Shown here: piece after piece, positions 1 through 9,985 of the stretch | Numbering within the stretch: position 1 is the stretch's first letter | How the letters are laid out: every line of letters starts with the position of its first letter | Assembly: GCA_963706025.1 (NCBI GenBank) | Contig: CAVPLM010000005.1 | Span: 576,001-640,000, forward strand | Direction of reading: 5' to 3' | DNA: 64,000 nucleotides | Source of the DNA: an uncultured Actinomycetes bacterium | GTDB lineage: Bacteria; Actinomycetota; Thermoleophilia; RBG-16-64-13 | Made by a program: the position numbers and the translations under genes | Notes under the pieces: generated by a model | Database searches by the model: none | Told to the model about the DNA's origin: nothing | Seen by the model: the letters and a program-made list of their open reading frames with translations, nothing else

Positions 1-3000
1 GGCCTGGCTGACGGTCTCCCCTCGCCATTCCGGCGTGTAGTAGGAGTAAGCCGCCGAGGCCGCGCCCTTCCCCCGGACCGGGTAGAGGGCGCGGGCCTGG
101 AAGGAGAAGCTGACCTTGTCGCCGGGGCTCATGTCTTCGATATACACGATCACCTTCCGGCCGGCCACGTCGTAGCGCTTGATCTTCGGGTTCTCCATAA
201 GACGAGCGAGAGATTCGTCCACCGCGGCAAACCCGGTGGGCACCGATACGTCAAGCACGGTCATGCCCGCTTTGATGGGCTCGGGGGGATCGAAGGTCAG
301 CGTCACGTTCACGTCCACCAGATCGTTGACCGCCACCTGATCGGTATTGTAGTCGACGTCGATGTCGAACACGCTCGCAGCCTTCTCCGCCGCCGGCAGG
401 TTGTAGCGAAGCACTCCCTGGATCACGGCCTCGCCTTTGCCCACGGCAGTCAACTTCACCGGCATCCCGGCCGGGATCTCCACCACTTGGGTGACGTCGT
501 AGTTCTCAGGCGTGATCTGAATTTCTTCGTTCACGTCGCCGGCGTTGAGGGTGACAGTCAGGTCGGTGTCGGTGGCACCGATCGTCGCGTACTCAGTGAG
601 AGCCTGAAGCGCCACCACCGTGTCCTGGGTAGTGCCGAAACCTCCCTGGCTGTTTCGTTGCCCAACGAGCCACTTGGCCGCTTGGGCTGCGTTCACCCGG
701 TCGTCACTCTCGATCAGGGCAAGAGTGGCATAACCGGTCGCTTCTACATCGAGACTGGGCATTATGTCGAAGGGTGGCATCAGGTCGCCTTCAGGCACCG
801 GGAGCTTGTCCACCCGCTGGGACCCGCCGCCAGCCGCTGCGCCGCTGCTCCAGTGAAGCCCGTTCTCGTCCTCGATGGCCAAGGCCATGAGCTTCTGCTG
901 CGCGGCCGCCGCCCGGTCGCTCCCGCCAAGCTCGAGCGCATAAGTGGTCAGAGCCAGTCCGTAGGGATCATCGATGGCGTCCAGCCGCCCCTCGAGGTAG
1001 GCCACGGCTTTGTCCGCGGCGGCGGTCTGACCGGCCTCCAGAAGGGCGATCGCCACATAGGCTGTGAGAGCGTCCTTGCCTTGCACACCCCCCACCATCT
1101 CTTGGTGATGCACGAAGCCGACGGCCTCGAAGGAACCGTCCTTCTGCTGGTGGTCGGTTATCCACCCGGCCGCGTCGGAGAGCACGGCCTCGTCGATGAA
1201 GGTCAGATCCTTGGCTTGAGCAAACGTCTTGAGCACGAAGGCGGTGAGCCAGAGGCTGCCCGTTTCATCCTGGTCGCCGAAAGCGGAGAAGCTCCCGTCC
1301 GAGCGACGATAGGTGAGTTCCCGCTGATAGCCGGTGACCAGGAGCATCTCGGCTTTGGCCTGTATTTCCGGCTTGAGTTGGCGTGTCCCTTCCAGGTACT
1401 TGAGTATGAAGGCGTCCGGCGCGAACAGGATCATGTTCTGTTCCCCACACCCAAAGGGCATTTGGAGCAACTGGTCGAGACCCTCGATGGTCTGCGCCAG
1501 GAGACTGCCGGTGACGGCCACATAGGCCCGGTCCGAGTCGGGGACGATCTTGAGCAGGTCCGGCAGGACCAGGCCCAAAGTCCGCGACTGACCGGCGGGA
1601 AGGACGACGTTCTCCACCGTCTCCCGACCCACGCCTTCCGGCTCCACGATCATGCTCTTGATCACCGCGTCCGCGGCTTCGGAGCTGCGGGCCGTTATCT
1701 TGACCAGCTGCGTCCCGATCGTCGTCGGCCGGATCCTGAACTCGGCGCTGCCGATGTCGCCGCCCGCTATGGTCACAGTGGTCTTCGTGCCGTCCAGAAG
1801 CTCGAACCAGGAGGCAGGCTCGATCTCCACCTGGATCTCTTGAGGCGTGTCCAGGTAGTTGTACAGAGCGATCTTGACCGGGAACTCCTCCCCGCGGATA
1901 GCGGAATACGGCAGGTCGGCCTGCAGGAAGAACGGCTGGAACACACGTAGCGAAGCCTCGGCGATACCCAGGCCATTCGCGGGCGAGAGCGCCACAGCTC
2001 TAAGGTCCCAGGTGGTGATGGAGTCGGGCGCTTCAAAAGAGAGAGAAGCGATGCCCGCATCGTCGGTGATGGTCTCTTCCCAGATCCAGGTCTCGGGGAA
2101 GTACTGTCTCACGCGCTCCACCTCGGCCAGCTGGCCGGAACCGGTCGGCGTGGTCTCACCGGCCATCGAGGTCGTCGTCGCGGCCGCTGCGGTCGTCATA
2201 GTCTCTCCCGGCGCCGCTTGACCGGCCTTGACCGCCTCCGCGCCGTCGAACATCATCTGCGGCGACTCGATCTCTTTGCCTTCGGGCACGTCCTTGTTCG
2301 AGAGCACGATCAGACCCGCATCGTCGAAGGTCTCCTCGGCTCCCGGGATGACCAGAGGCCCACCCATCCACTCACCCTCGTGCAGTTCGGCTTGAGGCTG
2401 CATGTAGAGGCGCTCCAACTCGGCGAACACTTGCTCGAGATTGAGACGGTTCTCGGCCAAGATGAACACCGAGCGATCGACCGCCACTAGGCCCACTTTG
2501 GCCGGACCCTCGGTCTGCACCTGCACCTCCACCGCATCTCCAGGCTTGGCTTCGTCGGTATTGAAGGCGGCGCTCACCTGTTGCGGGTATTCACCCGCGA
2601 CTTCGAAGGGAAGGGAATCCGCGGCCACTTCGCTGCTCGGCAGGATCTGGTAGACGAGCAGGCGCGCCGAAGGCGCCATGGCCGGCGTCACTTTGAAGGA
2701 GATGTCTCCTGGGGTGCTGCTGGTGAAGACCACCCGTCCCCGTGAGACCACCTCGTAGTAGAAGGTGCCGGCTTCAGCAGTGGAAGCGACTTGGAAACTC
2801 GCCGTGTCCCCCACGTCCAGAGCCAGTTCCCCCTGCTGCTGCACGTGGACGAAGTTGCCGGAGGGAGAGTACGACGCCGTCACTTCCTTGTAGGCATACG
2901 CATCGCCCGAGGCGGCCTGGAACGTGGCGCGTACTGCGTCCTCCGGGGGATCGAACTGCACCAGAGCTGTTCCCCGGCTGGTCTCTACCCGCTGGAGCTC

Positions 3001-4163
3001 GTGCCCCACTTCGCTGTAGTCCTCGTCCATGTAGTAGACGTCCACGTTGACGCTCGCTTCGACCGGCTCGCCCCCCGGGGTCTCGGTAACCACCAGCACG
3101 CTGAAGGGCAGCGTGGGCTTGAAGGCCGAGCTCTCGGGGATGAGCTGGATGTTCACCGGAGACTGCGCGACCGTGATCAGCTCGGTGGTCGTCTGCTCGT
3201 ACCCGGTCGATTCCTCGACCACCGTGATGTCGAGCCTGACGTTCCCCAGCCCTCCGGCCTCAGGTACGCCGGCCACGTAGCCGGCCGGCCGGATGGTGAA
3301 ATCGCCCTCGCCGTCGATATCGGCAGTATAGGTGGCGTACTCTTCCCACTCACCCACGTAGCGAGAGGCGGTCACCTTGAGCTCGCCCTCGACCGCCCGG
3401 CCAAAACTGTACTGAGCCGCTACATGACCGGCGATGGTCTCGTCCACCAGGAACCAGCCCTTCGCAAGCTCGGCCTTGACTTCGTATTTGGGAAGGACGT
3501 ATTCCTCCACCCGCACGTCCAGTTCGGTCGAGGTGTCGCCTGCGTAGGCGGTGAGCTTCCACACCCCCAGGTTCGGCTCGGTCGACAGTGGCAACTCCGT
3601 GGTGACAGTGCCGAACTCGTCGGTGGTTACCATCTGCTTGAAGATCTTGATGCCCTTGGCGTCCTGGACCTCGATCGTGGCCCCGGTCCGCACCGGCTTC
3701 AGCTCTGAATCGAGCGCCACCAGCCGCACGAGGATGGTCTGTCCCGGCTTGTAGATGGGCTTGTCGGTCTCGAGGAAGAGAAGTGTTCCGGCCTGGACCT
3801 GGACAGAGGCACGTTCGGAGAAGCCCACACCGGTGACCAGTATTTCGTACTCGCCTGCCGTCACCTGGGGAACATCGAAAGTCACGGTGCCCTTGCCGTC
3901 GATGTCGGCAGTACCCGAGGTCAGCAGCTTCTTGTTCTGATCGAAAAGCGACACACTGACCTGGCTCTTGACCAGGTCTTTCCCGTTGAAGAGAGACATG
4001 GAGAAGGAGGCGGTCTCGCCCGACCTGAGCACCTTGGGGACCAAGGCTACGTACCCGTCGACCCTCTCGCCCCCGCGGGCGGAGGAGGCGAGGTGCACCC
4101 CAGGATCACCGCTCCAAGAAGCCCCGCGAGTATGAGCGGGACAAGCATCCTCAAACGACTCAT
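1..4163 (-). CDS. Secreted alpha-2-macroglobulin / thioester-containing protein (3' end runs off the window; probable 1-nt indel near 4100 in the signal peptide)
   Basis: Manual translation gives LFLETDKPIYKPGQT, EEYVLPKYEV, VRQYFPETWIWE, LLQMPFGCGEQNMILFAP (thioester, about 1423-1470), TGYQRELTYRRSDGSFSAFG, WLTAFVLKTFAQA and a C-terminal receptor-binding domain. ATG at 4163 starts a hydrophobic leader in a different frame. Confidence 0.93.
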
Positions 4164-4195
4164 GGCGCACCCCCCTGGTCTCGGATACCTGCTGA

Positions 4196-4222
4196 GACGG
4201 AGGGGGGCTTCCTTGAGTTTCC
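4196..4222 (-). promoter_or_regulatory. ECF-sigma-like promoter upstream of the A2M gene
   Basis: Minus strand GGAAAC-N17-CGTC, matching the AAC/CGT pattern of ECF promoters. Confidence 0.4.
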
Positions 4223-4322
4223 GAAGACGGGGCTGCCCGCGAGTGCGGGCCGCGGCACAAGGGTGGCGACCAAGCGTGGCGTAGGCTGGTGAAAGCCTCA
4301 GCCGAGCTGCGAACCACCCCGC

Positions 4323-4560
4323 CTAGGCGAGCGGCCAGAACACCTCGGTGACGTGCTTACTGAGGTCCGGCTCCGCCGGGCCGGTGAGGTAGCGCTCCCA
4401 CATCGTGTCCGCCAGAGTCAGATCGTTCGCTTTCGCGTACTTGTCCGCGCGGACCCAGGGGTTCTCGATCGGATTGATGTCGACCGCCAGACCGTAGGCA
4501 TGCATGCTCCACACGCTGGCGTAGTAGCCCTCGACCCAGGTCGAACTGGGAAGCGTGTCG
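4323..4560 (-). pseudogene. Chimeric remnant: M15 peptidase fragment joined to a GyrI-like C-terminus
   Basis: WSMHAYGLAVDINPIENPWV (SxH-x6-D, M15) directly followed by ...TMWERYLTGPAEPDLSKHVTEVFWPLA (GyrI-like ending). Confidence 0.5.
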
Positions 4561-4784
4561 CGGCCAGAGAATACCTTGTCCCCGGCTTGACTTTCCGAGA
4601 CACCGAGCTGATTCCGCTCCGTGATCGAGATCCGAATGCAAGAGTCGCATCTGTTGGCTGCTGTGCCTCGATTGGTATGATGGACTCCTGTACTGCTCGT
4701 CTATCGATCGGGCCTGATGAGGGGCTGGTCGTGGCATCGCGGGTGACAACGGCACTTTGAGCGAGGGGAGAGTCGGGAGAGACG

Positions 4785-8725: not shown

Positions 8726-9985
8726 GTGGCTATGAAAGCATCCACCGATCGCATCGTGTGCCGGGAGTGCCGGGGACAGAACGACCCGGCCGCCCGTTTC
8801 TGCTGGTACTGCGGGGCTTCGCTCCACAGCCGAGGTTACTACGCCAGCGGTTCCCGCAAGGCTGCGCGGGTCACGAGGGACGTGTTCAAGTGGCTGATCC
8901 CCGTGGTCGTGGTGCTGGCCCTCGCCGTCGGTGTTTTCTATGTGGTGGACGCCTACCTGCTGTCGCCTCTGCGGAGTAGCCCTGCCCGAGTTGAGACCCA
9001 GCCCAGTACCACAGTGAAGGTGATCTCCACCACCACTACCACCACGATCGCGCCCCGTACCGACCGCGTCGTGGCCGGGAGCGATCGGTACGGCACGGCC
9101 ATAGCCATCTCCAAGCTCGGCCATCCCCAGGGTGCTCCCGCTCTGGTGCTTGCGACCGGCGACGATTACACAGAAGCGGTCTGCGCAGCTCCTCTGGCGG
9201 CGGCGTACAAGGCGCCCATACTGCTCGTGCCCCCGGAAGGTATCAGAGCCGACCTCAGCACCGAGATAGAGCGGCTCAATCCTTCGCGGATATTCCTGGT
9301 AGGGGTCTCGGGATCCTCCAAGGTAAAGAGACAACTTCGCGATCTCTTGGGGGATCCCGGCATAGCCAGCCTGACCGGCGACGATCGGTACGAGACGGCG
9401 GCTCTCGTCGCCCAGCAGGTCAAGGCCAAGCTGGGGACGGTTTCGAAGGTGGTCGTAGCTCCCTCGGACAGCTTCGCGGAGGCGATCGCGGTGGCTCCGC
9501 TGGCGGCGGCCAAGGGTTGGCCTATCCTCTTCGGCCCCCTTGAGGGCAAGATTCCCGCTGCTACCACCGACGCCATAGGAGAGCTGGGGGTGGCTTCGGC
9601 GCTGGTGGTCGGTACCAAGTCAGAACTGAGCCTTACCGACGTGGAGCGCCAGGTGGGAGCGGACAGCTATGCGACCGCCGCCCTTATCGCGCGGTACGCC
9701 CTCACCCAGGGCTTGAGCTTCGCCCACACGGCTATCGTCACCGGGGAAAACTTCCCGGACGGTCTGCCCGCGGGACCCTACTTAGCTCTCGACAACGGTA
9801 TCCTCCTGCTGGCCAAAGAAGGACGGCTCCCCCCGGCTATCCTGGCAGTGTTCAACGCCAACCAGTCGGCCATCCGCACTCTGGACTTCATCGCCTTGCC
9901 GGATCTAGCTGAAGCCATGGCACGCCCCCGCACCGCGACCACAGTAACCTCCGGCACTACGGAGACCACCGAGACAACCCCGTAG
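8726..9985 (+). CDS. Cell-wall-binding repeat 2 (CWB2) protein with N-terminal zinc ribbon and TM helix
   Basis: CRECxxxN...FCWYCG, TM segment, Thr-rich linker, three G(S/D/A)D(R/S)Y repeats with PILL-like motifs. Confidence 0.88.
   Translation: MAMKASTDRIVCRECRGQNDPAARFCWYCGASLHSRGYYASGSRKAARVTRDVFKWLIPVVVVLALAVGVFYVVDAYLLSPLRSSPARVETQPSTTVKVISTTTTTTIAPRTDRVVAGSDRYGTAIAISKLGHPQGAPALVLATGDDYTEAVCAAPLAAAYKAPILLVPPEGIRADLSTEIERLNPSRIFLVGVSGSSKVKRQLRDLLGDPGIASLTGDDRYETAALVAQQVKAKLGTVSKVVVAPSDSFAEAIAVAPLAAAKGWPILFGPLEGKIPAATTDAIGELGVASALVVGTKSELSLTDVERQVGADSYATAALIARYALTQGLSFAHTAIVTGENFPDGLPAGPYLALDNGILLLAKEGRLPPAILAVFNANQSAIRTLDFIALPDLAEAMARPRTATTVTSGTTETTETTP

Follow-up and report, generated by a model that had tools for sequence, protein, structure and literature searches.

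The left end of the window analysed here, that is, the whole stretch of 64,000 nucleotides covering positions 576,001 to 640,000 of contig CAVPLM010000005.1 (assembly GCA_963706025.1, an uncultured Actinomycetes bacterium of the Thermoleophilia), carries on its minus strand a gene for a thioester-containing protein (TEP) with the architecture of eukaryotic alpha-macroglobulins: domains MG1-6 with a bait-region domain, MG7, CUB/thioester domain (TED) and MG8. The gene belongs to a large and old prokaryotic family centred on Actinomycetota and Chloroflexota. This family represents a third and much larger type of bacterial alpha-macroglobulin, characterised by a eukaryotic architecture that lacks the additional N-terminal domains seen in Escherichia coli YfhM, by a GCGEQ thioester motif together with a distant histidine, and by the lack of both pbpC and an operon. 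As for its function, we favour with moderate confidence a stress-induced, lipid-anchored and bait-triggered covalent protease trap. The passages on bacterial alpha-macroglobulins in two reviews from 2026 place these proteins in Gram-negative, mostly host-associated bacteria (PMC12939704, PMC13069473), and one of them repeats their acquisition from metazoan hosts as a non-definitive hypothesis (PMC13069473). Databases already label the proteins of the present family as alpha-2-macroglobulin family or CD109, and an open-access full-text search found no publication on a GCGEQ-plus-His family of Actinomycetota and Chloroflexota.

The body of the protein (MG1 to MG8) occupies positions 1..4062 of the minus strand, within a frame that stays open in the translation of the window from 1 to 4317, and the gene ends four codons and a stop beyond the left edge, where inspection of the following genes, as the sequence-only reading had advised, revealed no pbpC. 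The body is collinear from end to end with a eukaryotic A2M chain, since phmmer aligned residues 82-1429 of the query with residues 18-1429 of chain 7s62 in a single stretch. Seven Pfam families were detected in the order found in animals (MG2, MG3, MG4, A2M_BRD, A2M, TED_complement and A2M_recep), six of them above the cut-offs and MG4 slightly below, and no others were found; both the Pfam matches and the one-stretch alignment thus give the domain order of the alpha-macroglobulin/TEP superfamily. All on the minus strand, the MG2 domain lies at 3523..3780 (PF01835, 2.1e-19), the bait-region domain A2M_BRD at 2458..2823 (PF07703, 2.9e-27), the A2M (MG7) domain at 1825..2091 (PF00207, 6.1e-28), the TED at 589..1515 (PF07678, TED_complement, 1.8e-87) and the MG8 or 'receptor-binding' domain A2M_recep at 16..270 (PF07677, 8e-16). 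The match at 1825..2091 is the sole PF00207 match of the whole genome, and the gene is single-copy. Neither an anaphylatoxin (ANATO) nor a C345C/NTR domain gave a Pfam match at E-values up to 0.01, and no alpha-macroglobulin match was obtained among the curated prokaryotic models of NCBIfam. The closest solved structures in phmmer were human A2M (5.4e-146, 491 bits), CD109 (9e-139) and A2ML1 (about 1e-130; 9.7e-131), followed by C4, TEP1 and C3, whereas no YfhM chain occurred in the best 60 of the 77 rows; the TED alone matched those of human A2M (8e-61) and CD109 (3e-57). The proposal that the protein is much closer to animal TEPs than to YfhM is therefore upheld, with 491 bits for human A2M in phmmer against 44 bits for YfhM in BLASTP. 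The whole protein has two cysteines, one in the leader and the other in the thioester, and exactly two are also present in 82 of the 114 full-length relatives, while most eukaryote-like rows hold 8-55; the Cys-rich disulfide framework of the eukaryotic TEP clade is absent from the window protein.

The minus-strand translation contains LLQMPFGCGEQNMILFAP, QLKPEIQAKAEMLLVTGYQREL and WLTAFVLKTFAQA as well as VHHQEMVGG, the strings from which the sequence-only reading had recognised an animal-like thioester protein with a complement-C3-type histidine. They occur where it had located them, with the thioester motif GCGEQ at 1438..1452 (minus strand; residues 956-960, with Cys957 and Gln960 in P0002 numbering) and VHHQEMVGG at 1087..1113 (minus strand). 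The human A2M and C3 strings it had quoted for comparison were equally accurate: the printed alignments with human A2M chains 6tav/7von read llqmpygcgeqnmvlfap, qltpeikskaigylntgyqrql and wltafvlktfaqa, and the one with C3 (1qqf) reads pvihqemigg. The resemblance to A2M and TEPs is far beyond chance. GCGEQ aligns with the thioester of A2M and CD109, as expected for the superfamily motif, so that a Cys-Gln bond is predicted. The second histidine of VHHQEMVGG, His1071 (codon at 1105..1107, minus strand), lies 114 residues after Cys957, close to the ~110 residues typical of His-bearing TEPs, and aligns with the histidine of C3, of C4-B (pvihrsmqgg), of TEP1 (YHKEMQGG) and of CD109 (VIHSELQGG), and with the second Asn of llnnaikgg in human A2M. 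By these alignments, it corresponds to the hydroxyl-reactivity histidine of C3 and C4-B, in agreement with the sequence-only reading; what did not survive is the notion of a C3 peculiarity. In a 62-row alignment the residue is found in 24 of 30 eukaryote-like rows and in all 19 rows of two prokaryotic GCGEQ clades (12/12 in the window clade and 7/7 in the second one), and across the wider prokaryotic clades it is invariant in 26/26 GCGEQ proteins. The histidine is, in other words, the commonest state in the superfamily sample and no speciality of C3. Both GCGEQ and the His motif are present in 114/114 full-length relatives.

A word-indexed search listed 120 relatives besides the gene call itself, with 56-87% identity among the matches listed. 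The source names, where given, are alpha-2-macroglobulin (family) protein, CD109 antigen (JGI), a list of Pfam domains or hypothetical protein, and the organisms named are metagenome-assembled genomes (MAGs) of Actinobacteria, Thermoleophilia, Gaiellales, Chloroflexota and Dehalococcoidia. Moreover, at least 557 related stretches exist in prokaryotic species-representative genomes (one genome per species); the best 80 of them all come from MAGs, whose titles nearly always give Actinomycetota or Chloroflexota, and some are located on complete chromosomes. An exhaustive profile-free search retrieved 12,243 proteins at E-values up to 0.001. Within its own lineage the gene is patchy, being present in 3/3 other genomes of the genus, in 9/24 genomes of the family and in 0/16 genomes from other families of the class. 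Related strains come from freshwater and sediment metagenomes.

The sequence-only reading had taken positions 1-4163 as one gene, which is not an intact open reading frame (ORF) in the assembly. The ATG at 4163 opens a 38-codon leader frame (4047..4163, minus strand) comprising a signal peptide, a lipobox Cys (codon 4095-4097), a Pro-rich linker and a stop at 4047, and the body, recognisable from about 4062, is shifted by one base relative to this frame. The break falls in a five-base homopolymer (G5 on the coding strand) at 4070..4074 (minus strand). Logan contigs of related strains, from two runs belonging to two studies, have an additional base after 4071 in 2/2 contigs of X1 and 1/1 of X2; run X3 has no coverage of 4078-4104, and the counts rest on X1 and X2. 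The leader is continuous with MG1 in the orthologues of the related genomes G002, G003 and G015. Across the family, a leader Cys after a hydrophobic stretch is present in 109/114 full-length relatives, 105 of them with G, A or S at position -1, which points to a family of lipoproteins. The offset in this genome reflects one of two things, an error in the homopolymer or a strain-specific leaderless allele.

If the loss of one base in G5 were real, this copy would be a pseudogene or a phase-off allele, whose body, if translated, would start at an internal GTG, lack a signal peptide and fail to reach the envelope. The different frames of leader and body in the assembly speak for it, and the gene caller did start the body at an internal GTG (the 1370-residue gene call P0003). 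In this line, orthologues from three other related genomes are likewise cut into 5-7 matching pieces (G001:C16:61607-65714, G019:C32:15217-19320 and G021:C6:53971-58043), two of the G001 pieces containing internal stops, a pattern due either to widespread assembly indel errors or to repeated gene decay. However, the remaining 1358 codons of the body are open and conserved, with 88-89% identity to the relative P0004, the break lies in a classic site of assembly errors, the extra base is present in related strains of two studies, and several breaks per gene resemble the noise of poor assemblies more than decay. We hold this explanation to be unlikely, although it deserves to be taken seriously.

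Between the bait-region domain and MG7 lies a low-complexity and hypervariable segment (2113..2265, minus strand; residues ~685-735 of P0002), which shows the highest column entropy of the protein among 115 aligned family members (2.67 bits, with 28% gaps) and an anchor-to-anchor length of 98-124 residues. This putative bait stretch looks like those presented to proteases of all kinds. A precedent is offered by A2ML1, described in the relevant sections of PMC7864068 as a His-bearing monomeric inhibitor in which the histidine gives reactivity towards hydroxyls (glycerol) and permits protease capture through a serine ester when amines are absent; monomeric inhibitors such as ECAM, the E. coli YfhM protein, depend there on covalent capture. 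It is because of the hypervariable stretch and the A2ML1 precedent that we read the family as protease traps. The course of events we infer would start with export of the protein, which a lipid on its leader Cys would anchor on the outer side of the cytoplasmic membrane, its synthesis being probably induced by an envelope-stress sigma factor of the extracytoplasmic function (ECF) class. A foreign protease would then cleave the exposed bait and trigger a conformational change, exposing the buried Cys-Gln thioester, which the nearby histidine would turn into a short-lived acyl-imidazole. Finally, the Gln carbonyl would pass to the nearest amine or hydroxyl groups, above all those of the attacking protease. 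The protein would thus behave as a monomeric covalent 'snap-trap' like A2ML1 and ECAM, and the histidine would let it catch a broader set of proteases.

The proposed induction stems from a motif, GGAAAC-N17-CGTC, at 4196..4222 (minus strand), about 33 nucleotides upstream of the ATG, which we take to resemble ECF-sigma promoters. The strict motif occurs within 360 nucleotides before the gene in 12/63 orthologous loci and in 4/2867 background windows, while a loose version is found in 24/63 orthologous loci, in 0/63 on the opposite strand and in 80/5863 (1.4%) background windows; it recurs before orthologues in two phyla. From the claim of a secreted protein behind an ECF-like promoter, the lipoprotein export signal and the upstream motif were recovered, whereas the leader is out of frame in this copy.

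Several points weigh against the trap. With leader and body in different frames, the copy in this genome may not be exported. A single occurrence of the motif proves nothing, and in the genome under study the strict motif shows no enrichment (54 occurrences against about 69 predicted by composition), so the promoter evidence is its conservation across loci and not its presence here; no cognate sigma factor or regulon was identified by motif search in this genome. The RNA run X20, with 5/30 bins covered and contigs below 95% identity, is uninformative on expression. The monomeric state is assumed, and the trap is read from sequence, by which alone it cannot be told from an opsonin-like tagger that the histidine would suit equally well.

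As a complement-like tagger, the role that the sequence-only reading had suggested, the protein would, once activated, use its His-assisted thioester to esterify glycan hydroxyls, marking or cross-linking its targets instead of inhibiting proteases; candidate targets would be polymers of its own cell wall and the surfaces of competing or predatory organisms. The alignment of His1071 with the C3 and C4-B residue that conveys hydroxyl reactivity (the mechanism is treated in part of PMC7864068) would fit, as would the vicinity of wall glycans if the protein is lipid-anchored. Nevertheless, the protein lacks ANATO and C345C/NTR domains and a convertase-type architecture, its activation segment is hypervariable in sequence and length, the pattern of a pan-protease bait and not of a defined convertase site, no partner gene such as a receptor or protease is conserved in the neighbourhood, and A2ML1, which has the histidine, is a protease inhibitor (as stated in the sections cited of PMC7864068). 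Altogether, we consider tagging quite improbable and retain the protease trap.

Among the known systems, A2ML1 shares the domain order, the CGEQ thioester and the hydroxyl-reactivity histidine, known here from sequence, and is portrayed in the A2ML1 sections of PMC7864068 as a monomer obliged to conjugate the protease covalently. It differs in being a secreted and disulfide-rich animal protein, in contrast with the two cysteines of the window protein and with the predicted N-terminal lipid anchor of a family that branches outside the eukaryotic clade. CD109 is similar in length, membrane-tethered and His-bearing, but its anchor is a C-terminal glycosylphosphatidylinositol, whereas that of the window protein, an N-terminal lipobox, lies at the other end and involves another chemistry; the window protein also falls outside the named CD109 clade. 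With C3 and C4-B it has in common the TED fold family, the thioester and the hydroxyl-directing histidine, and it carries a bait-type variable segment in place of their anaphylatoxin and C345C domains. Anopheles TEP1 resembles it in size, domain order and histidine, although TEP1, a soluble opsonin of an animal, acts together with leucine-rich-repeat (LRR) partners and the window gene has no conserved partner next to it. In this regard, four thioester proteins of 1660-1750 residues (P0397, P0403, P0404 and P0407) combine LRR domains with the A2M/TED set on metagenome contigs as long as 4.2 Mb, a curious arrangement given that the LRR partners of TEP1 are separate proteins.

The relationship with the eukaryotic proteins was addressed with trees of the window protein, family members, the best 150 representatives and E. 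coli YfhM, to which were added protist proteins known by name (Micromonas commoda and a EukProt transcript), six named proteins from metazoans and eight from prokaryotes, of which seven carried a source name: a FastTree tree of 134 rows, IQ-TREE trees of 62, 65 and 79 rows under LG+G4, and one of 32 rows under LG+C20+F+G4 by posterior mean site frequency (PMSF). Supports are values of the SH-like approximate likelihood ratio test (SH-aLRT) from short searches, alignments were made with fast MAFFT modes, composition is skewed in many rows, and the trees are unrooted, with no root position inferred. Most representatives being unnamed, rows were labelled 'eukaryote-like' from their Cys content, their signal type and the named rows that fall among them. 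The trees agree that a single branch (SH-aLRT 99) separates all Cys-rich eukaryote-like rows, protists included, from the window clade, and under both models the window protein falls outside the eukaryotic TEP clade (A2M, CD109, iTEP and C3-5). All six named metazoan proteins, together with the C3-like row P0242, belong to the metazoan clade (26-32 rows), which is distinct from both the protist clade and another clade of two unnamed rows. The protist proteins (P0323, P0284, P0273, P0274 and P0293), from Micromonas commoda, Polarella glacialis and MMETSP/EukProt transcripts including Pyramimonas, form a clade of their own beside the metazoan one, and among eukaryotes the thioester family is not restricted to animals.

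The window clade has short branches and also holds named records of Chloroflexi, Thermomicrobiaceae and one partial Bathyarchaeota record. Inside it, the copies titled Actinomycetota (the window protein, P0004, P0029 and P0058) make up one subclade nested among Chloroflexota-titled ones, which hints at a transfer between the two phyla. More distant positions are taken by a clade that includes Methanosarcinales, ANME-2, Euryarchaeota and Planctomycetes records, by two divergent groups and by YfhM, whose branch is very long. The placement of one small group with long branches is unsafe, since IQ-TREE puts it between the eukaryotes and the window clade but FastTree on the prokaryote side; its nearest relatives are on metagenome contigs of 2-3 Mb.

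These results bear on the origin that the sequence-only reading had proposed, a recent horizontal import of a metazoan A2M/CD109-like TEP, ameliorated in its guanine-cytosine (GC) content. The idea drew on motifs strikingly like those of human A2M, on closest solved relatives that are all animal proteins, and on the standing hypothesis that bacterial A2Ms were acquired from metazoan hosts (Budd 2004, as cited in the passage on origins of PMC13069473). However, the gene has the GC content of its surroundings, and the size of the family, with relatives spread over Actinomycetota and Chloroflexota MAGs and over prokaryotic species representatives, contradicts it, as do the trees, in which the eukaryotic rows keep to their side of the branch under both models and every named metazoan protein to the metazoan clade. 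Furthermore, forcing together the window core clade and 26 metazoan-like rows, a constraint that stated this very hypothesis and was set before any tree was seen, was rejected by the approximately unbiased (AU) test (delta lnL 209, p-AU 4e-39). A recent metazoan origin of the gene is excluded by these observations, and we give the import scenario hardly any credit. What is left is that the eukaryotic proteins came from a prokaryotic one, or that a very early transfer from eukaryotes to prokaryotes preceded all prokaryotic diversification. Rooted on the YfhM branch, the eukaryotes are one clade nested among several deep bacterial and archaeal clades. Since the branches of the family are short, its similarity to animal proteins can be read as retention of ancestral characters. 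As a tentative proposal, possible although we would not yet lean towards it, the short-branched, lipid-anchored GCGEQ-plus-His family of free-living Actinomycetota and Chloroflexota may be the nearest living image of the superfamily ancestor, eukaryotic TEPs having descended from such a prokaryotic gene.

Two types of bacterial A2M have been described, the second of which (YfaS/MagD) is characterised by the lack of a thioester and its location in a conserved multi-gene operon (two types in PMC5764988); the window protein, with a thioester motif and no conserved operon, does not belong there. The first type is represented by YfhM/ECAM, which the ECAM passages of PMC12939704 and PMC7864068 presume to guard the envelope against proteases as a covalent monomeric trap. 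Like the window family, YfhM is a lipoprotein with a CxEQ thioester, and the leader and lipobox of the window gene, out of frame in this copy, are in frame in the relatives. In spite of this, an ordinary type I protein working with PbpC in envelope repair is scarcely conceivable, since identity to YfhM is 22% (44 bits in BLASTP), YfhM sits on its own very long branch, as the phylogeny suggested by the sequence-only reading confirmed, the window protein is about 280 residues shorter, its body of about 1358 residues lacking the extra N-terminal domains, and no pbpC adjoins the gene, nor was a BiPBP_C (PbpC C-terminal) domain found in the 92%-complete genome. YfhM, from a Gram-negative and host-associated organism, has 1653 residues, reads CLEQ where the window protein reads GCGEQ, and shows no histidine at the aligned place, although this pairwise alignment is uncertain in a region of low identity. 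The E. coli gene, checked as a positive case, does adjoin pbpC, so that the contrast drawn beforehand between the present gene and the pbpC-linked type was well founded. A further group of prokaryotic proteins (the P0250 group, 1600-1800 residues) reads MPYGCFEQT and matches CD109 at 2e-66 versus YfhM at 2.5e-12. The diversity of bacterial alpha-macroglobulins is therefore much wider than the two described types.

Downstream, the gene is followed by rmuC, a gene of the EcsC family and carboxylase genes, and upstream it is flanked by the divergent serA. Across 67 loci there is no conserved neighbour, the best cluster of flanking ORFs being common to 9/67. Directly upstream, a short ORF (4357-4755, minus strand) without Pfam match or in-frame N-terminal half ends in ...HAYGLAVDINP..., which we take to look like the metal-binding motif of LAS/M15-type cell-wall peptidases, and is possibly a gene remnant. 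Other proteins encoded in the region include one of 419 residues with three CWB2 cell-wall-binding repeats (8726-9985, plus strand; 6e-34) and, to the left of the window, one of 574 residues made almost entirely of TPR_12/TPR_10 repeats (L002 6592-8316, plus strand; NPHP3-like TPR, 6e-156).

This third type occurs in environmental Actinomycetota and Chloroflexota, next to the eukaryotic clade and outside it. Two questions become testable in this way: where complement-type thioester proteins originated, and which role a His-assisted thioester may play at the envelope of bacteria whose phyla typically have a single membrane (monoderm). In addition, the family provides models of TEP chemistry that are small, free of disulfides and expressible in bacteria. 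If the eukaryotic proteins do descend from a prokaryotic ancestor of this kind, the core of complement and A2M would be of prokaryotic derivation, reversing the 2004 hypothesis of acquisition from metazoan hosts, and the hydroxyl-reactive histidine would be an ancestral trait, lost in A2M-type cages and in YfhM.

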